A DNA stretch of 64,000 nucleotides from Candidatus Thorarchaeota archaeon. Lineage in GTDB: Archaea; Asgardarchaeota; Thorarchaeia; Thorarchaeales; Thorarchaeaceae. Under the pieces are notes generated by a model, which did not search any database, had not been told where the DNA came from, and saw only the letters and a program-made list of their open reading frames with translations. The stretch is from positions 156,530 to 220,529 of the forward strand of contig JAFGAR010000028.1 in assembly GCA_016933575.1 (NCBI GenBank). Direction: 5' to 3'. Of this stretch, positions 124 through 42,696 are shown in pieces (position 1 is the first letter of the stretch; each line of letters begins with the position of its first letter). Both the position numbers and the translations under genes were made by a program.

Positions 124-328
124 AATATTACCACCGATACAATGGCTCTAATAACATGATTTAGGACAACTTATGGCAGTTTCCTTTTGCACAAAAACAC
201 CCTAACGTGCGATTTATCGAACTTAGAACGGGAGAATACATGACACAATCGTTGAAAAGGGAGAAACCACACACAGAAAGCACTTAAGACATTTACAGGT
301 GAAAGCCATATTAGATGGAGGTAGGTCT

Positions 329-3019
329 ATGGACAGTCACGGATGGAGACGCGAACTGGACAAGTTTGCGGAATTGAAAGGAATCCTAGTGTCAGTCAAT
401 CCGATACTAGAAGAACAGGCTAATCGCCAAGTCCGAAACCTCTATGATATCTTTGCTAGTTTAAGCAAGCTAGAGAATGATCTCACTAACGCGGGCTTGC
501 TAAAGAAACGAAAAGTTCAGACTGAAGTTGATAAAACTACTAGTGAGCTTGAGGATGCATTCATGAGAGCCACTCGTGACTTTGCTGAACTATTCAGGAA
601 AGAGCATAGAGATGTAGTTGCGATTATACCCAAATTACAGGCAATTAAACCTGCAGAATCAAAGTCAATCTCGACTATTAGTTTTCCCGGGATTGGCGCA
701 GGGGATATGAAAGACTTTGAGAAATTGATGGAATTTGCCAAGTCATATTCAAAGTTGTATCTGATTATTTTTGAAGATGTATCTCGAGAGGTCAAGTCTG
801 TCTTGGATGAGAACAAGGCTACAGTAGACACCTATGAGAGACATGTCACCATCGACAAGAGTGAGGTATCAACAACAGTATCTAATGAGGATGTCGCGGG
901 TCTCACAATGCGAGACTTGATCATTCTGAATGACAAGCTCATGGAAGACCGGAAATACCTCAATAGTCGGAAAGATGAAGTCAGCAAGATGCTGGGTTCA
1001 TCTTTGGTTAGTGATACTGAATCACTACAGGCATCCGTTGAAACAGCTGCAAGATTGGGACTGGACCTACCAATGGAATTCTCCCAGCAACTGCGAATCA
1101 TAGCTAGAGATGCATCAAAAGCACAAGATCTGACCTCTCTGGTAAGTCTTGAGAACCAGCTCCACACCTCCAAGATAAAGATGGCAAACATGTTGAGAGA
1201 TAAAATCATCAACATCAAGCATGAGGTCACTCAGAAGATTGTAGATGGGGGAATACCAACTACCTCAGAAGTCATTCCAAATCCACCATCTGTATCAGTC
1301 GAAGGGGAAGGTATTGCAGGATTATTATCAAGTTATCAGCGGATGGTAGAGTGGGAAGGTCAAGTAAGAATCGCACTACGTGAAAGACTCTACGAGTTAC
1401 TTGATGATGTTGAGAAAGCCTCTGAAGTCCCCGATGACACTGGTATTAAAGATGTCATCACAGTGAGACAATACATAGCTGATTCAAAGAAGAGTCTGAA
1501 ATCAGCAGACATTGATGAAATGGTGAGAATCTACATCAAAGTCAAAGCTATGGATGAAGAATACCGTAAAGCCATCATCGATAGTATACGAAATTACCTA
1601 ACACGATTCAATGAATTGGCAACTTCAGCAGACCGCGTGCTAGATCATGCCCAGTTAAGCAAGAAGGCTCCCAAAGTCGAAGAGATGGAGGGTGGAATAA
1701 CCTATCTACTTGAGTCACTCTCAACTTTGCGACAAGCTGTAGAGAGTGGAGTAGCAACATTTCGTGAAGCCTGTCAGCAAGAGATTGATGCTATTGTCCA
1801 TGACCTTCAAACAGTCAAACCTGCTTATGCTGAAATCTTCATGCCAATTATTGTAGAACTTGATGAAGGATCCAACAGAATTCAGGTCATGGATGACTTT
1901 ACAGAGATCAAATCAGAGATGCGTTCTATCAAAGAAACAATGCTTGCAAAGGCAAAGGATTCTTTGGAGAACCTGCGCTACAGATTAGGTGTAAAGATTC
2001 GACTCGCTGCTGCGAAGCTCATGGGTGCAGGTGTCGAGATACCTCCCGAAGTACAAGAGGCAATCAGTGAATTGAATAGTATCGGTGTGGCTGCAGACAA
2101 TGTTTTTGCCTTGCCTGCAATCGCAAGAAAGATGATTGAGATATATGAAAAGAAGATCTCGAACAATGTCATTGATCAGCTAGAGTCGGAGGTCGATTCA
2201 CTCATCACCTCCCTTGAGAAGGCAAAAAGCATTGGTGTCAAGGTTGAAAAGGAATTGAAGATGCTCACTTCTTTGAAGGAGAAACCTCCCACAGAGCTCG
2301 AAGAAGCCGCGGATGCCTTTGACAAACTAATGAACCTGACAACATCCCCACAGGTGCACAAGAAGATAAGAGACCGGGTTGATGAGGCCTATCTCCAGAT
2401 CAAGAACGCAGTAGGGCTCTTCGAAGAACAGGGGATGTCTGAGTTCGTTGAAAGGTTAAAGATGCTAATTGACCAAGTACCAGCTAAGCTGGAAAATGAG
2501 TCACCTCATGTTAATGATGCCCTTGATGTTTGCCTGACCCTAGCAAATATCCAGGAAGAGATGCTCAGTGTGATAAAGAACATCTCAAACATGAGTGGAG
2601 AAAGGCACGACCGTGAACTTAGAGAGAAAAGCCAATATTACTCAACAATTGAACGAGTTGTTGAAAACCATCAAGACCAATTCAGCAAAATCGTATTCAA
2701 CATAAACAAGATGAAAGAATTAGAATCAACACTTAATGTTCTATCTAATCTTGATGAAACAATCACATGTTTCCATGAACTTGAAAATATGAGGAAATCG
2801 TGGCTCGAGAAATCAATAGCAATGGATGACTGGCACAAGTCATTAAGAATGTTTATGACTGGTTTCAGTCCTGCAGCAAAGGCTGATGAACGAGACAAGT
2901 TCATTGAAGATGCAATACGAAAAATCAAAGAGACCTATAGTAGAGAAGACATCAGTTCTTATCTCAGCTGGGCGGTAAGGGAAAGCGCTCAAGCATTGGT
3001 CGGCGCAAGAAAAACATAG
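329..3019 (+). CDS. large all-helical / coiled-coil-like protein, first gene of the CetZ-like operon (function unknown)
   Basis: The ORF opens at GTG 299 (906 codons). In-frame ATG 329 is preceded by GGAGG (317-321) with a 7-nt spacer, so 329 is the likelier start. The translation is E/K/L/I/S/D-rich with long amphipathic-helix stretches. It has no TM segment, P-loop or catalytic motif that I recognise. Stop TAG 3017-3019 overlaps the AGGAG that precedes the next gene. Confidence 0.8.
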   Translation: MDSHGWRRELDKFAELKGILVSVNPILEEQANRQVRNLYDIFASLSKLENDLTNAGLLKKRKVQTEVDKTTSELEDAFMRATRDFAELFRKEHRDVVAIIPKLQAIKPAESKSISTISFPGIGAGDMKDFEKLMEFAKSYSKLYLIIFEDVSREVKSVLDENKATVDTYERHVTIDKSEVSTTVSNEDVAGLTMRDLIILNDKLMEDRKYLNSRKDEVSKMLGSSLVSDTESLQASVETAARLGLDLPMEFSQQLRIIARDASKAQDLTSLVSLENQLHTSKIKMANMLRDKIINIKHEVTQKIVDGGIPTTSEVIPNPPSVSVEGEGIAGLLSSYQRMVEWEGQVRIALRERLYELLDDVEKASEVPDDTGIKDVITVRQYIADSKKSLKSADIDEMVRIYIKVKAMDEEYRKAIIDSIRNYLTRFNELATSADRVLDHAQLSKKAPKVEEMEGGITYLLESLSTLRQAVESGVATFREACQQEIDAIVHDLQTVKPAYAEIFMPIIVELDEGSNRIQVMDDFTEIKSEMRSIKETMLAKAKDSLENLRYRLGVKIRLAAAKLMGAGVEIPPEVQEAISELNSIGVAADNVFALPAIARKMIEIYEKKISNNVIDQLESEVDSLITSLEKAKSIGVKVEKELKMLTSLKEKPPTELEEAADAFDKLMNLTTSPQVHKKIRDRVDEAYLQIKNAVGLFEEQGMSEFVERLKMLIDQVPAKLENESPHVNDALDVCLTLANIQEEMLSVIKNISNMSGERHDRELREKSQYYSTIERVVENHQDQFSKIVFNINKMKELESTLNVLSNLDETITCFHELENMRKSWLEKSIAMDDWHKSLRMFMTGFSPAAKADERDKFIEDAIRKIKETYSREDISSYLSWAVRESAQALVGARKT

Positions 3020-3031
3020 GAGTAGCAGTCA

Positions 3032-4417
3032 ATGTTTGGAACCAATCCTGGTGTAGATAGTGATGACACAACCAAAGCAGCTGAAGTTTTTGCAATCGGA
3101 ATAGGAGAATGTGGGTCTAATATTGTAGGTTCATACCTCCAGACTAGCCGCGATAATAAACTGCCATCACGTGTTCGAGGATACCTCCTCATCAATACAG
3201 ATAGAGCAGACCTCACCAAGGTCAGGCAAAAATACAAGATACCCAAGGAAAACACCCTCTTGTATGGCGCGTCTGAGATAGGTGTCGGTGGTCGTTTCAT
3301 GGATGGGTATAATGCAATCATGGAATCCAAGGACATCATCTTCGACCAGTTGAGTAATCTAGGATTTGAGGGTGTATCGGGATTCTGTATCTTTACATCC
3401 TTGGGTGGTGGTACCGGATGCGGCGGAGCTCCTGCTTTAATTGAGCTTCTAAAACAGAGATTCCAAGAAGAAGAAGGTCGCCGTATCTTCGTGTACGTTG
3501 TAGGTATTCTGCCCTTTGAAGGCCAGTCCAGCGAAGCTTTGAACTCAATATGGGCAGTATCTAAACTGCTTCGGGCTCAACTTCAGGAACGAGGCGCAGA
3601 CCTGACTATCTTACTTTCAAACCGAACTATGCTGAAGAGGATTCTTCAATGGAGAAAAGGAGATACTGTGGACTATCTACGAAGAGAACTCGATGTAGAT
3701 ATTGCAGATATTGACTCCATCGAGTCGATGGTACCATCAACCCTCGATGAAGCGAGTGATCTTGAGGCGAGAACAGAACAAGCATTCGTTGAATTGGTGA
3801 ACCCACTCGCTCTGGATGTTGTTGAGGCAATGCTTTCGCCAGGAGTCTGGGAAAGTCATAAAGATGTATTTCCAACAACCGACCTAGCAGATTATTCACG
3901 AAAACTGGACCCAGTAGTGGTACCAGCTCTCTATACTGACATTGGTCTAATCCCTGATGCCGGTAGCATGCCAAAGCAGCTAAGAACAATGATAGACTAT
4001 GCAGTGAAGGAGTGTTCCTATGCAGACGTTGGAGAAGAACCCAATGCTGAATCTGTCTACTATGTTCTTTCAGGACCGACTCATATTGCTAAAGCTGAGT
4101 TTGGTATGCATGTGAAAGAAGCTCTTGACAAATTCATTGCTCCAGGTGCTGCAATCACACCATGTTATGTCCAATATCATGTTCCTGATGCAAAGACAAA
4201 CCTGCTTTTATTGCTCGGACTTCCGAAGATACCAGAGCTTGTCACTATCATCAATGAAGCAACACAACTGGTCAATCTTCATAGCGGAGCATCTCCACTA
4301 AAACAGGGCTGGTTTATGAGATCTAAAGGAACATCTCGAAAGGAACTTGTAGATGCCATTAATGACTTCCGTGAGCTCTTCAGTTATTACATGACTCCTG
4401 GAGAGACTATGCAATAA
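3032..4417 (+). CDS. FtsZ/tubulin-superfamily GTPase, CetZ-like (divergent)
   Basis: The translation carries the full set of tubulin/FtsZ motifs: T1 GIGECGSN (aa 23-30), LINTDRADL, T3-like GVGGRFMDG, T4 signature SLGGGTGCGGAPALIELLK, T5-like ILPFEGQ, T6-like LLSNRTM and T7-like TTDLADY. The GGGTGxGGAP form resembles CetZ/FtsZ more than eukaryotic tubulin. AGGAG lies 9 nt upstream of the ATG. Confidence 0.85.
   Translation: MFGTNPGVDSDDTTKAAEVFAIGIGECGSNIVGSYLQTSRDNKLPSRVRGYLLINTDRADLTKVRQKYKIPKENTLLYGASEIGVGGRFMDGYNAIMESKDIIFDQLSNLGFEGVSGFCIFTSLGGGTGCGGAPALIELLKQRFQEEEGRRIFVYVVGILPFEGQSSEALNSIWAVSKLLRAQLQERGADLTILLSNRTMLKRILQWRKGDTVDYLRRELDVDIADIDSIESMVPSTLDEASDLEARTEQAFVELVNPLALDVVEAMLSPGVWESHKDVFPTTDLADYSRKLDPVVVPALYTDIGLIPDAGSMPKQLRTMIDYAVKECSYADVGEEPNAESVYYVLSGPTHIAKAEFGMHVKEALDKFIAPGAAITPCYVQYHVPDAKTNLLLLLGLPKIPELVTIINEATQLVNLHSGASPLKQGWFMRSKGTSRKELVDAINDFRELFSYYMTPGETMQ
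3404..3427 (+). other. tubulin/FtsZ signature (T4) motif GGGTGCGG coding segment
   Basis: Codons 125-132 of the 3032-4417 ORF read ggt ggt ggt acc gga tgc ggc gga. This translates to GGGTGCGG, matching the [SAG]GGTG[SA]G-type signature but with Cys in the variable position. Confidence 0.8.
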
Positions 4418-4431
4418 TGGAGTGTGAATAA

Positions 4432-5502
4432 TTGTCTGATGGTGACTCCTCATCCTTTCAATACGATGACCTCATTGATAGGCTACTCCTAATTGTAACT
4501 CTCAATTCCACATTGATCCATTTCTTGTTGAGTTCTCAAGTTGAAGGATACATTGATCCTGATCGAGTGGACTCACTGACCCAAGGATTGGTAAGAACGA
4601 GAAAGTGGATGGAAGAAGCCACAACAATGAAAGGTGTACCCCCTTCAACTCAAAATATTTTGAGTCTGATTGTCAAGCGACTTGCACAAGTTGAGAGTCT
4701 GCTACCAAAACTATCAGACAAAGCCAAGTTGGCTGAGAAGACTCCAGCACAGGAGATTCTCTCATTACTTGATGGAGCCCAAGTAAAGACGAAGGTCTCT
4801 TCAGAAGGTGCGTCACTGGAAGCAAGTTCTGAGACTGAGTTGGTTCCTCTTGTAGGAGCTGAGCCTGCAAAGACTTTGGAGGCATATAGAAAGGTCGATG
4901 TAGAGGACGACCAATTTGGGTTGATTGGCCAGACCCAGCGGCTAATCCAGCAATATTCGCCACGTTGTCATATTTTATTGCCGACCTTTTGGCTTGAAGC
5001 ACTTCGAGAGATTCACAAATACAGATCTGAATCTCCATACTTTGGAGATGTTATTGAGCTTCCAGCAAGAATCATTGTAAAGGTGACAAAAAGCCTTCTC
5101 ACAGAAGCACCAGGGGCAAGACTGTTACAAGACTTGATGAAGAATCGACAACAAGAGAGCTATCTCAATAGTTCAGAGATGGAACGTATCGAGCGAGCAG
5201 TTGCAAAATACTTCCAAGGTGTTGAAGCAGTTCTAAAAGAAGACACACTGAATGTCAAGGACAAGATTCTTGAGGCTCAGACTGCATTCGATGGATTTGG
5301 ATGGGGTGGACCAGAGCTAGAGAAACGCCTGATTAAGCGGATAAATCAAGAATGTGAAGAGTCGCTCCAGAATGCTGAATCTGCAACTGATGAAGCAAGA
5401 CAGGTCATTTATGCTGAAATTACAAAGTTGATGAGTAAACTTCAACACGCAATTCTTGCAGAATCACGACCTCGTGAAATCCTCTCGCAAATGAAGCCAT
5501 AG
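4432..5502 (+). CDS. helical protein of unknown function, third gene of the CetZ-like operon
   Basis: A 356-codon ORF starting at TTG 4432. GGAG (4419-4422) lies 9 nt upstream, the same spacing as for the preceding gene. There is no in-frame ATG near the 5' end. The product is charged and helix-rich with one moderately hydrophobic N-terminal helix (RLLLIVTLNSTLIHFLLSS). No recognisable motif. Confidence 0.7.
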   Translation: MSDGDSSSFQYDDLIDRLLLIVTLNSTLIHFLLSSQVEGYIDPDRVDSLTQGLVRTRKWMEEATTMKGVPPSTQNILSLIVKRLAQVESLLPKLSDKAKLAEKTPAQEILSLLDGAQVKTKVSSEGASLEASSETELVPLVGAEPAKTLEAYRKVDVEDDQFGLIGQTQRLIQQYSPRCHILLPTFWLEALREIHKYRSESPYFGDVIELPARIIVKVTKSLLTEAPGARLLQDLMKNRQQESYLNSSEMERIERAVAKYFQGVEAVLKEDTLNVKDKILEAQTAFDGFGWGGPELEKRLIKRINQECEESLQNAESATDEARQVIYAEITKLMSKLQHAILAESRPREILSQMKP

Positions 5503-39672: not shown

Positions 39673-42600
39673 ATGGCTATACGAGTTCTGATGGTCGATG
39701 ATGATACTGTTCATCTAGAATTGAGTGAACGATTTCTGAAGCGACAAAGTCCAGATTACGAGATTGTTTCTGTTGAAACTTCAGATGATGCAATAAGACT
39801 TCTTGAAGAAAATGGTTTTGATGCGGCTGTCTGTGATATTGATCTCGCGGAGCAGACCAAGACGGGTCTAAATATTCTAGAACATGTTAGAAGTAGGAGT
39901 GATGATATTCCTTTCATTATCTTTACTGGAAAGAGCAGAGAGGAGTTTGCTATCCAAGCGCTCAACCTTGGGGCGGACTACTATATTCGAAAGAGCTCAA
40001 CAAATATCGAGGGACTCTATGCAGAACTCTCCTATTACATCCTTACTGCGGTTGCAAAACGGCGGACAGAACGAGCTCTGAGAGATTCAGAACAAAAATT
40101 ACGCGAGAGTGAAGCAAGGCTTGCAGAAGCTCAACGTATCTCACACTCAGGTAGTTGGGTATGGAATATTGTAGAGAATAAGGAAATTTGGTCCGATGAG
40201 ATCTACCGAATCTTTGGACTAGCTCCACAGGAATTCCTTGCGACATATGAAGCATTCTTGGAATCAGTACACCCTGAAGATAGAGAACTGGTGAAGAATT
40301 CAGTAGAAGCAGCCATCAAAAATCAAGAACCCTATAGTATAGACCATAGAATAGTTAGACCAGATGGTGCAATAAGACATGTGCATGAAGAGGGGGAGGT
40401 TACCTTTGATGCAGATGGTACAGCTGTCAGAATGATGGGAACGGTACAAGACACTACAGATCGGATCATAATTGAAGAACTCCTCCGTGAAGAAAGAGAC
40501 CGGGCTCGAAAATATCTGCAATTGACGAATACGATGATAGTGGCTCTTGATACGTCATTCAATGTGACTATGATTAACCGAAAAGGCTGTGAAATTTTAG
40601 AATATACAGAGGAAGAGATTCTTGGTAAGAATTGGATTCAATTCTTTCTACCAGAGAGTGGACGAAATGAGGCAGAAGAGTATCTCAAGTCCCTGCTTGA
40701 TTCAAATGGAAATATTGGACCGTGTTGTAGTTTCAAGATACTCACACGAACAGGAACAGAAAAAACAATCCTATGTCATGACACGGTTCTTTTTGATGAT
40801 GAAGGAGATATATCCTCAATTCTCTGTTCAGCTCAGCTGATTCCTGAAACAGGAAACATCGACCAACCAGAGATTACACTCATAACTCAATCATTGCGAG
40901 CTAGAGAGGAATGGTGGCAAGGAGTATTTGATCACGCCCCAGGTGCTATTGGAATATTCAATTCAGAGGGCCTATTGATTGATGCAAATAAAGCAGCAGT
41001 AGAGATGCTTGGCGTAAAGAATCGAGAAACACTTCTCGGTCTAAGTCTCTTCAGGGATTCCAACTTGCCTAAGCACGTCCTTGAGAGTGTACAACGAGGA
41101 GAGGTTCATAGATTCGACTATAAATGGGACTTTGGATATGTGTCAAGAAGAGGAATCCTTCCAACAACAAGGACTGAAGTCATCTATATGGATGTCGTTC
41201 TGTCACCACTTCAGGATACTAATGGACAATCAAGAGGCTATGTCCTTCATGCAACCGATATGACACATCGTCGGCGTACAGAACAAGCACTGAAAGCAAA
41301 TGAAGAAATGTTCCGGACAATATTTGATGAATCACCAATCTGTATCGAATTGTTCGACTCGGATGGTATACAAATAGGAGCGAATAAAGCAAGCCTAGAA
41401 CTCTTTGGTCAGGAGAGTATAGAAGATTCAATTGGCTTTGATCTATTTGGAGATCCCAACACACCAGATTTTGTTAAGGAACACCTTCGAAAAGGTGCTG
41501 CAGTGAAAGCACAGACTCGTTTTGATTTTTCGAAAGTTCATTTACATGACCTATACAAGACAAAGAAGACTGGGATTCTTCATCTCGACGCAGTTTTTTC
41601 CCCGCTTCATTATGGCTCAGAAGAGGGATTACAAGGATATATCATCCATATTCAGGATATTACAGATCGACATCTTGCAGAGCAAGCCTTGATGGAGAGC
41701 AGGGAGAGTTACAAGGAGTTATACAATAATGCACTAATTGGTCTATTTCGTGTTAGAATCTCAGATAGCATGATTCTGGAGTGTAATGAATACTTTGCCA
41801 AAATCTTCAGTCATGATGACAGACAGTCGATTATTGACGGTATGAGCTTTTTCAAAGATTTCCTATTACGTCCTTCATTATGGAATGAACTCAAAGAAAC
41901 TTTGAAGAAACAAGAGCGCGTTATCACAGAGCTTCAAGTGACTTCGAAAGATAGCAAAAAACTCTGGATGAGGTTCTCATTACGCATAGCGACTGAAAAG
42001 GGACATATCGAAGGTGTGATGTCAGATATCACACAACAAAAACTTGCACTTGAGATGCTTCGAAACCAAAAAGAGGAACTTAGTGAATTTGCGCATTCGA
42101 TGAGTCACGATCTTAAGAATATCTTACACAACATGCAGGGTTTTCTAGAACTAGCTGAGGACGAGAATAATCTAACTCACTTGAAGAGACTTCACAGTCT
42201 CATCAATGACACTATTGATCTGTTGAATCATTCAGTTCTTCTTGCAGATGCGGGACTTGTTGTAGAAGAAGACCTAACGGACGTTAATCTTGATGTTCTT
42301 GTTAGAGATGTTGCGGAATCGATCATTCCAGACACTATTGGCTATAACCAGGACAGTCTACCAGTCGTCAAGGCTGATGTAACAAAAGTGAGTCAAATCT
42401 TCAGAAACCTATTCGATAATGCTGTGAAACATGGAAAACCGAGGACCATTGAAGTCAGAAGTTACATTCGAGAAGGTAACATCTGTGTTGCGGTTTCAAA
42501 TGATGGAAAAGACATATCCGATGAAATTCGACCGAAATTATTCTCAAGGGGATTCACAACTAGCAAGACAGGTCAAGGGTTTGGATTATCTATCGTAAAA

Positions 42601-42696
42601 CGTATTGCTGAGGCGCATAAATGGACCATTCATCTTGTTGACACTAAAAAGACGACTTTTGAGCTACGTATGCCTATCAATAATTCAGGAATGTAG
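39673..42696 (+). CDS. hybrid sensor: N-terminal response-regulator receiver + multiple PAS domains + HisKA/HATPase histidine kinase
   Basis: Receiver motifs are VLMVDDD and AAVCDIDL. There are at least four PAS-like repeats (for example ITDRHLAEQAL and MTHRRRTEQAL linkers). The H-box is FAHSMSHDLKN, the N-box is NLFDNAVKHG, and the G-box is GQGFGLSIV. No TM segment. Confidence 0.9.
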   Translation: MAIRVLMVDDDTVHLELSERFLKRQSPDYEIVSVETSDDAIRLLEENGFDAAVCDIDLAEQTKTGLNILEHVRSRSDDIPFIIFTGKSREEFAIQALNLGADYYIRKSSTNIEGLYAELSYYILTAVAKRRTERALRDSEQKLRESEARLAEAQRISHSGSWVWNIVENKEIWSDEIYRIFGLAPQEFLATYEAFLESVHPEDRELVKNSVEAAIKNQEPYSIDHRIVRPDGAIRHVHEEGEVTFDADGTAVRMMGTVQDTTDRIIIEELLREERDRARKYLQLTNTMIVALDTSFNVTMINRKGCEILEYTEEEILGKNWIQFFLPESGRNEAEEYLKSLLDSNGNIGPCCSFKILTRTGTEKTILCHDTVLFDDEGDISSILCSAQLIPETGNIDQPEITLITQSLRAREEWWQGVFDHAPGAIGIFNSEGLLIDANKAAVEMLGVKNRETLLGLSLFRDSNLPKHVLESVQRGEVHRFDYKWDFGYVSRRGILPTTRTEVIYMDVVLSPLQDTNGQSRGYVLHATDMTHRRRTEQALKANEEMFRTIFDESPICIELFDSDGIQIGANKASLELFGQESIEDSIGFDLFGDPNTPDFVKEHLRKGAAVKAQTRFDFSKVHLHDLYKTKKTGILHLDAVFSPLHYGSEEGLQGYIIHIQDITDRHLAEQALMESRESYKELYNNALIGLFRVRISDSMILECNEYFAKIFSHDDRQSIIDGMSFFKDFLLRPSLWNELKETLKKQERVITELQVTSKDSKKLWMRFSLRIATEKGHIEGVMSDITQQKLALEMLRNQKEELSEFAHSMSHDLKNILHNMQGFLELAEDENNLTHLKRLHSLINDTIDLLNHSVLLADAGLVVEEDLTDVNLDVLVRDVAESIIPDTIGYNQDSLPVVKADVTKVSQIFRNLFDNAVKHGKPRTIEVRSYIREGNICVAVSNDGKDISDEIRPKLFSRGFTTSKTGQGFGLSIVKRIAEAHKWTIHLVDTKKTTFELRMPINNSGM

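Follow-up and report, generated by a model that had tools for sequence, protein, structure and literature searches.

Do three adjacent genes at the left end of a Thorarchaeota sequence, the middle one encoding a tubulin-like protein, constitute a dedicated cytoskeletal module, and to which family does the middle protein belong? The question is raised by a stretch of 64,000 nucleotides (nt), henceforth referred to as the window, from contig JAFGAR010000028.1 of a Candidatus Thorarchaeota archaeon (assembly GCA_016933575.1, positions 156,530 to 220,529 of the forward strand). A preliminary description of the window, made from the letters of the sequence, had proposed a CetZ/FtsZ/tubulin-type GTPase translationally coupled between two large helical proteins. 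The three genes, here termed A, B and C, were found together across Asgard archaea in a tightly spaced operon. B was placed in the Asgard-specific Asg.Tub family of the tubulin/FtsZ superfamily, and A and C were found to define two further families.

Organization and conservation of the A-B-C operon

The window is a chromosomal stretch of a Thorarchaeota-like Asgard archaeon with a G+C content of ~41%, and the best relatives of A, B and C all come from Thorarchaeota metagenome-assembled genomes (MAGs). The three genes are on the + strand at the left end of the window. Lengths are given in amino acids (aa).

317-321, + strand: ribosome-binding site of gene A (GGAGG), 7 nt 5' of the ATG, read from the sequence
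329-3019, + strand: gene A, 896 aa, acidic and all-alpha; an operon-confined family to which no function is assigned
3018-3022, + strand: ribosome-binding site of gene B (AGGAG), overlapping the A stop codon TAG (3017-3019), 9 nt 5' of the ATG
3032-4417, + strand: gene B, 461 aa, predicted tubulin/FtsZ-superfamily GTPase of the Asgard-specific 'Asg.Tub' (CetZ-like) family
4419-4422, + strand: ribosome-binding site of gene C (GGAG), 9 nt 5' of the TTG start
4432-5502, + strand: gene C, 356 aa, acidic and helical, with a TTG start

The A-B spacer is 12 nt (3020-3031) and the B-C spacer is 14 nt (4418-4431). Both gaps, and the GGAG-type motifs 9 nt before the B and C starts, are present in the sequence exactly as the preliminary description had reported them. 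The mechanical open reading frame (ORF) of gene A runs from a GTG at 299 to 3019; ATG 329 is the likely start because it is preceded by the GGAGG motif and the resulting 896 aa fit the orthologues (895-898 aa). Gene C orthologues measure 354-359 aa, in line with the copy in the window. No paralogue of A, B or C was detected elsewhere in the window. The isoelectric point (pI) is 5.2 for A and C and lies between 4.85 and 5.2 for all three proteins, none of which has a transmembrane segment.

Relatives of B were sought in one genome per GTDB species. A relative was found in 127 genomes, and the best 80 of the 127 loci were retrieved. The MAGs that gave these 80 loci are labelled Thor, Sif, Hermod, Borr, 'Odin', Promethearchaeota and Heimdall, and no genome named Lokiarchaeum or Prometheoarchaeum is among the best 80 of the 127 matching genomes. 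Overall, each of the 89 related loci with flanking DNA keeps the order A-B-C, and the MAGs concerned are labelled Thor-, Sif-, Hermod-, Borr-, Baldr-, Heimdall- and Hodarchaeales and Asgardarchaeia. Conservation of the neighbourhood around orthologues of the GTPase had been named in the preliminary description as a check on the operon. Upon tblastn searches with A, B and C, the order A-B-C on one strand was observed in 78 of 86 loci; seven of the eight exceptions are contig edges and the eighth is Heimdall LC-3, where the C orthologue was recovered by hhalign (E = 1e-12, residues 151-355). The triad is likewise present in Baldrarchaeia (hhalign E = 9e-42 for A and 4.5e-19 for C, the latter over residues 156-356), and homology of the flanking proteins at distant loci was detected by BLASTP with E-values of 2e-24 and 1e-119 for A and 3e-18 and 8e-38 for C.

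Spacing is also retained. In the 75 loci with both junctions measurable, the A-B spacer has a median of 13 nt and the B-C spacer one of 16 nt, and GGAG/GGTG-like motifs stand 5' of nearly all B and C starts. A orthologues lie directly upstream of B and C orthologues directly downstream at related loci. At distant loci B is preceded by a large protein and followed by one of ~300-390 aa, with all three genes on the same strand and tiny spacers between them, as listed below (lengths of A/B/C).

Heimdall locus: 1169/454/341 aa
Hermod-like MAG locus: 874/449/336 aa
Asgardarchaeia locus: 870/389 (+42)/296 aa
Heimdall LC-3 locus: 1396/454/392 aa
Baldrarchaeia locus: 1023/454/299 aa

The genes beyond the triad vary between the lineages represented by these five loci. 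The triad is kept while its outer flanks change, which argues for selection for the linkage itself. Between Asgard classes, and measured in the same genomes, identity is 49-63% for B, 20-30% for A and 25-30% for C, the pattern expected if B is a polymer subunit and A and C are accessory proteins that evolve faster. Sequence identity follows taxonomy, which indicates vertical inheritance. A, B and C are a conserved, tightly spaced three-gene operon.

Some loci show irregularities in gene calls or spacing. At the Asgardarchaeia locus (L005:8001-9323), the gene call for B ends after 389 aa and a 42-aa ORF comes next, although the tblastn match to B extends to 9308; the split is probably a frameshift or assembly error and not a truncated protein. 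Unusually long A-B or B-C gaps at L048, L062 and L081 may have similar causes. Arf/Ras-family small GTPase genes occur 0.3-7 kilobases (kb) upstream of the triad at Heimdall and Asgardarchaeia loci (L001:102-1037, L005:4532-5113 and L006:1-468). A conserved link between an Arf-family gene and the triad was considered and rejected, since tblastn detected such a gene in 5 of 86 loci only; its presence probably just reflects how abundant small GTPases are in these genomes.

Gene B encodes a predicted GTPase of the tubulin/FtsZ superfamily

Residues 18-202 of B match the Pfam Tubulin profile PF00091 with 74.5 bits (cut-off 33; E = 1.8e-20). Motifs were read from an alignment of 23 orthologues sharing 49-89% identity.

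3095-3121, + strand: T1 loop GIGECGSN of B, residues 22-30; invariant or nearly so in the 23 orthologues
3404-3427, + strand: G-box/tubulin signature GGGTGCGG of B, residues 125-132; invariant, aligned with CetZ GGGTGSGG
3872-3910, + strand: T7-like loop P-TTDLAD-YSRKLD of B, residues 281-293, with TTDLAD at 282-287

The signature GGGTGCGG carries a Cys where the superfamily signature GGGTG[ST]G has Ser or Thr. An S-N pair, the counterpart of the CetZ D-N, and the asparagine of helix H7 (N257) are both invariant or nearly so. Within the T7-like loop, T283, D284, D287, L292 and D293 are invariant in the 23 orthologues. The T283-D284-x-x-D287 element sits 27 residues past N257 and, in an alignment of the C-terminal halves, lies opposite the CetZ V-x-D-x-x-D-I segment; by analogy with the superfamily, D284 and D287 are candidate catalytic acids. 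The FtsZ/tubulin guanosine triphosphate (GTP)-binding motifs that the preliminary description had recognized in the middle product are borne out by the Pfam score and by the invariant G-box and T1 loop. Judged from its sequence, B is a genuine tubulin/FtsZ-superfamily GTPase with intact G-box, nucleotide-binding and T7-like motifs.

Two further features were observed in B. An acidic, variable insert of ~45 residues (~205-250; window 3644-3781) separates the end of the GTPase domain from helix H7; the CetZ profile has nothing equivalent to it, and it led the automatic profile alignment astray around T7. The C-terminal extension is conserved and contains W427-F428...K432-G433...LFxYY.

By sequence, the nearest solved structures are all CetZ (4b46, E = 2.5e-11; 3zid, 8e-8; 4b45, 7e-7). 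OdinTubulin, AtubA, gamma-tubulin and BtubA/B follow (~1e-5 to 1e-4) and FtsZ is weaker; these PDB-sequence matches cover the N-terminal domain only. A CetZ profile was built from bona fide CetZs, and it matches 4b46 at 482 bits. Alignment of B to this profile by hhalign (probability 99.85%, E = 1.6e-30) extends over 343 columns, B 19-414 against CetZ 3-359, and supports coverage of both the GTPase and the activation domain.

Assignment of B to the Asg.Tub family

The preliminary description had allied the middle protein with CetZ. With a CetZ hidden Markov model (HMM), the scores are 277-496 bits for CetZs and 98-126 bits for the B family, the latter approximately the level that FtsZ gets. 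In the opposite direction, the B-family HMM gives at least 492 bits for its members, 152 for one isolated relative and 36-65 for CetZs. The CetZ label could not be maintained: these profile scores place B outside CetZ in the strict family sense. Nor does it fall within FtsZ (35.9 bits against TIGR00065, with a cut-off of 295.2, and no match to FtsZ_C) or among the eukaryote-like tubulins (~25 bits over the N-terminal domain only, and no match to Tubulin_C). Among 1.84 billion representatives clustered at 50%, the B family amounts to two full-length sequences only, and in a search of these clusters the scores fall from 492 to 152 to 73 or less. The small number of representatives and the gap in scores indicate that the family is sharply bounded and unusually conserved.

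A family with these properties has already been named. It is Asg.Tub, described as a 'novel CetZ-like group in Asgardarchaeota' by Santana-Molina et al. 2023 (Front Microbiol, PMC9871819), in whose work its position between CetZ and tubulins was unstable and its C-terminal HMM had no match to other groups and limited similarity to CetZ. Its four founders, given in the supplement of that paper, are Thor SMTZ1-83, Thor AB-25, Heimdall LC-3 (OLS26264.1) and Heimdall B3-JM-08. The Heimdall LC-3 member of the B family (P0115) is OLS26264.1, and the other founders carry the GIGECGSN, GGGTGCGG and TTD[LI] motifs as the B family does, which makes B a member of Asg.Tub.

The literature on this family is sparse. 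A 2026 preprint on AtubAB (10.64898/2026.02.15.705738) refers to a 'small CetZ-related Asgard archaeal clade' that serves as outgroup only, and a 2026 review of Asgard biology (PMC12993045) makes no mention of Asg.Tub. Apart from the 2023 phylogenetic mention and the 2026 outgroup use, no literature characterising B or its neighbours was found. The claim that the module is uncharacterised accordingly stands as regards a characterising paper, but not as regards the GTPase, which has a family name. Similarly, the claim that coiled-coil partners had gone undescribed holds insofar as the partners were neither named nor analysed; it must be qualified in that the 2023 authors described the genes next to those of archaeal tubulin-like groups as unknown and, for the most part, as having coiled-coil regions (PMC9871819). 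As published, Asg.Tub consists of four sequences to which no function was assigned, whereas the present analysis places the B family in 127 species-level genomes, defines two partner families and identifies an invariant triad. This Asgard-wide triad and its two partners of orphan fold appear not to have been described before.

Proteins A and C define two partner families

The AlphaFold2 model of A (predicted local distance difference test (pLDDT) 85.7, predicted template modelling (TM) score 0.39) contains ~30 helices, many of them 30-50 residues long. The model was made from an alignment of 44 Thorarchaeota sequences; the alignments for both A and C were shallow and Thorarchaeota-only. It suggests an elongated, flexibly jointed chain of helical bundles and not one long coiled coil. 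The flanking proteins had been described as soluble and helix- or coiled-coil-like: they are indeed almost entirely alpha-helical and have no transmembrane segment, but the AlphaFold models do not depict classical long coiled coils.

Two arms of A are conserved, an N-terminal one (~40-420) and a C-terminal one (~490-890). The extra length of the Heimdall and LC-3 orthologues acts as a central insertion (~+270 and +500 residues, respectively), the Baldr orthologue has an N-terminal extension, and orthologues range from 870 to 1396 aa in total.

2801-2998, + strand: most conserved block of A, residues ~825-890, from the alignment of A orthologues

In this block W835-H836-K837, R872, D874, Y878-L879 and W881 are invariant from Thor to Hermod and Asgardarchaeia, and the block can also be aligned in the Heimdall and Baldr orthologues. 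Its conservation makes it a candidate interaction surface.

Gene C has a different, bipartite layout. Its AlphaFold2 model (pLDDT 78.6) comprises three N-terminal helices (residues 11-113), a disordered linker (~106-145, pLDDT <50) and a compact helical C-terminal domain (~150-356, pLDDT mostly >90), which is the sole part of C alignable out to Heimdall LC-3 and Baldrarchaeia.

4879-5499, + strand: C-terminal globular domain of C, with the motifs LLPTFW, EAPGARLLQ and FDGFGWGGPELEKR, from hhalign and invariant columns

The first helix of C has a Kyte-Doolittle hydrophobicity of 1.59 in the window copy and of 0.67-1.82 in orthologues. A ZipA-like membrane anchor formed by this N-terminal helix was considered and rejected, as the hydrophobicity is inconsistent across orthologues; the helix also has conserved polar positions (N, S/T, H), so that a bundle helix fits better than a transmembrane segment.

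Searches for relatives of the two proteins were negative. Neither A nor C gave a meaningful match in Pfam, NCBIfam, PADLOC or PHROG, nor in profile searches of PDB sequences; the Pfam and NCBIfam searches took in A, C and nine divergent orthologues. Foldseek of the C model against the PDB returned nothing with E<0.1. The same was true of the A model, for which the top entries (dynein tails, vinculin and gamma-tubulin complex proteins (GCPs)) have a TM-score of ~0.1, although domain-level matches could escape a full-length search with a flexible rod. SMC_N, AAA and Rad50 domains gave no match in A or five divergent orthologues, and the A model is entirely helical. No kinship between A and C was detected (hhalign probability 0.5%).

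Several candidate identities for A were rejected individually. A GCP/Spc97-98 protein is contradicted by the lack of a Pfam GCP match and by Foldseek, in which GCP chains reach a probability of 0.02-0.04 and a TM-score of ~0.1. Other known rods (vinculin, dynein tail, spectrin) were dismissed with the Foldseek result of nothing at E<0.1, and internal repeats were found neither by hhalign of six segments nor by BLAST self-comparison of four orthologues. That the flanking proteins belong to no assignable family was thus upheld, and the SMC/Rad50 or S-layer relationship that would have spoken against the proposed module was not found, A and C lying outside every known family searched. A and C are two partner families without known relatives, with confident models that have no fold match in the PDB.

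Proposed function and alternative explanations

The explanation we favour, and regard as reasonably probable, is that the triad is an Asgard-specific cytoskeletal module encoded in one operon, with B as a GTP-dependent filament, A as a rod scaffold and C as a bipartite adaptor. As in other members of the superfamily, B would assemble head to tail into GTP-dependent protofilaments, and its T7-like loop (D284/D287) would enter the GTP pocket of the next subunit and bring about hydrolysis, by analogy with FtsZ, CetZ and tubulin. A and C would be produced in step with B via the short spacers containing Shine-Dalgarno motifs and act as its dedicated partners, presumably in physical association. The long acidic rod of A may bind alongside filaments, or between them, and serve as scaffold, cross-linker or spacer, and C may be an adaptor that joins the filament to A or to some other cellular structure, with the conserved C-terminal extension of B (W427-F428...K432-G433...LFxYY) as a possible docking site. 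Cell shape or protrusions and division or segregation are the candidate processes that such a module could serve.

Certain points weigh against this explanation. The single transcript is deduced from the spacing of the genes. The two-domain fold of B and the assignment of its T7 loop depend on profile alignment, and the C-terminal half of B alone aligns to CetZ only weakly (probability 74.6%, local E = 2.7e-5). No membrane-binding, DNA-binding or enzymatic signature was found in A and C, and the acidity of all three proteins (pI ~5) says nothing positive about their targets.

A broader proposal can be offered tentatively, as a possibility that we rate below the module itself: besides the FtsZ divisome and the rare AtubAB microtubules, the triad could be a separate, third cytoskeleton of the tubulin superfamily that goes back to the ancestor of much of the Asgard phylum. 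Two partners with previously unseen folds would organise its filament, and it would serve an Asgard-specific aspect of cell architecture (protrusions, shape control, intracellular organisation).

Other explanations of the same genes were weighed against the cytoskeletal module. An accessory or alternative division system, in which B would form a ring at the division site beside FtsZ1/FtsZ2, C would be a ZipA/SepF-like tether and A a ZapA/EzrA-like organiser, is unlikely. B belongs to the FtsZ/tubulin superfamily, the layout of C (helical N-terminus, flexible linker, globular C-terminal domain) resembles the general architecture of ZipA, and bacteria have long helical FtsZ regulators, for example EzrA. 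However, B reaches 35.9 bits against an FtsZ equivalog cut-off of 295 and is devoid of FtsZ_C, C has no consistent transmembrane anchor (maximum hydrophobicity 0.67-1.82 in orthologues), and no division genes are linked to the triad at the Heimdall, Hermod-like, Asgardarchaeia, LC-3 and Baldrarchaeia loci. Asgard archaea, moreover, already encode FtsZ1/2 and SepF (PMC10936438). We give slightly less credence to the idea that A and C are assembly factors or regulators, comparable to tubulin-folding cofactors or sequestering proteins, that hold B in a non-polymeric state or control its nucleation. At 870-1396 aa, with a lineage-variable centre between conserved arms, A has dimensions that would be more usual for a structural spacer than for a chaperone, and no likeness to known tubulin cofactors or GCPs was found (Foldseek GCP probability at most 0.04); on the other hand, the strict one-to-one genetic coupling would fit an obligate stoichiometric complex, and A and C are without features tying them to membranes or DNA.

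The divergent prokaryotic tubulins TubZ and PhuZ move DNA with operon-encoded adaptors, and this precedent invites a TubZRC/PhuZ-like role of the triad in segregating the chromosome or a mobile element. Such a role is very improbable here. A and C, both acidic (pI 5.2), have no helix-turn-helix, ribbon-helix-helix or other DNA-binding domain; no iterated centromere-like repeats were found up- or downstream; there were no PHROG or PADLOC matches of note; the locus is chromosomal, among housekeeping neighbours (purine cluster, DNA ligase and a gene resembling type 2 isopentenyl diphosphate (IPP) isomerase); and the way identity tracks taxonomy indicates vertical inheritance. A partition, phage or defence origin of the locus was rejected on the same findings of no centromere-like arrays, no meaningful PADLOC/PHROG matches and housekeeping neighbours. 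Finally, a fortuitous adjacency of three unrelated genes is effectively refuted by the synteny data, as order, strand and very short spacers are kept in MAGs labelled with at least 8 Asgard lineages while the outer flanks change.

Comparison with known tubulin-family systems

The GTPase family is named already in the literature, and the general kind of system, a tubulin-superfamily polymer with dedicated operon partners, is known. CetZ (Haloferax volcanii CetZ1/CetZ2 and Methanosaeta CetZ; 4b45, 4b46, 3zid) comprises the closest solved relatives of B by sequence. B and CetZ have profile homology over both domains and a common H7-T7 spacing. They differ in that CetZ is euryarchaeal and not reported with A or C partners, whereas B has the insert at ~205-250 and the conserved C-terminal extension.

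The triad would follow the general logic of the partnered systems TubZ-TubR-TubY, BtubA/B-BtubC, artubulin-Snf7 and FtsZ-SepF/ZapA, where the gene of a tubulin-superfamily polymer stands beside genes for lineage-specific proteins by which that polymer is bound, anchored or regulated. A and C have no homology to those partners, though, and are without a DNA-binding domain, a BtubC-like tetratricopeptide repeat (TPR) or an ESCRT-III fold; the A-B-C module is also chromosomal and widespread across Asgard lineages. A Halo_adaptin cluster with a CetZ-like protein is another partnered tubulin-family system (PMC10936438).

Eukaryote-like Asgard tubulins (OdinTubulin, 7evb; AtubA/B, 9f6t and 9tqj; Heim alpha/beta-tubulin, 24rt) share the superfamily and the host phylum with B. 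The T7 segment of B, TTDLADYSRKLDPVVVP, resembles the tubulin T7 motif N-x-D-L-x-E-F-x-x-N-L-V-P. The Atub/Odin tubulins are rare, occurring in only few Asgard genomes (2026 review, PMC12993045), whereas the B family is widespread in the phylum.

The three nearest other families of tubulin-like proteins (P0364, P0373 and P0374) were also examined for partners in common with B. This possibility was rejected, as their neighbours are not A- or C-like; A and C are therefore specific to this module.

The three loci were also described individually. P0364 (L087:8001-9374) is a lone 457-aa relative of B that scores 152 bits against the family profile, above CetZs and far below members. It lies on a 17-kb archaeal contig, downstream of SMC-ScpA and dihydroorotate dehydrogenase genes, and has no A-like gene; an overlapping 262-aa ORF shares with C at most a weak 'F-x-W...L' motif (probability ~20%). 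P0364 may be a sister lineage of Asg.Tub. P0373 (L089:150-13226) is a 435-aa tubulin-like protein whose gene cluster also comprises ThiF/JAB-like genes, a 913-aa beta-propeller (PQQ-like) protein and unknown genes of 680, 222 and 648 aa that overlap, all unrelated to A and C; the cluster recalls the adaptin-like or ubiquitin-linked clusters of a haloarchaeal CetZ-like protein (PMC10936438). P0374 (L090:6001-7839) is a 612-aa tubulin-domain protein with a long extension past the GTPase fold, beside purine-biosynthesis genes, and the members of its family are labelled Bathyarchaeota.

Other features of the window

The neighbours of the triad in the window include an ADP-forming acyl-CoA-synthetase-like gene, a purine biosynthesis cluster, a DNA ligase and a PAS histidine kinase. 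A further neighbour is an FMN-dependent dehydrogenase-family gene (Pfam FMN_dh match), probably a type 2 IPP isomerase. At 39673-42696, a 1007-aa hybrid sensor with a receiver, several PAS, HisKA and HATPase domains represents ordinary signalling unrelated to the triad. The window opens just 5' of gene A, where a minus-strand gene apparently begins near 123 and leaves the window end. A weak 10-nt direct repeat (227-236 and 256-265) is also located 5' of gene A.

Significance for Asgard biology

Among known prokaryotes, Asgard archaea are the ones most closely related to eukaryotes, and the components of their cytoskeleton (Lokiactin, AtubAB microtubules, FtsZ1/2 and ESCRT) are studied in order to understand eukaryogenesis. 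B is an Asgard-widespread protein of the tubulin superfamily that is unusually conserved (49-63% between classes) and has the same two partners alongside. The triad offers a compact and defined three-gene target for reconstitution, and A and C add two sizeable families without known fold to the candidate cytoskeleton-associated factors. If B does not polymerise, the module would provide an example of a tubulin fold recruited for a different task. If the module is structural, the inventory of cytoskeletal systems credited to the Asgard ancestor would change.

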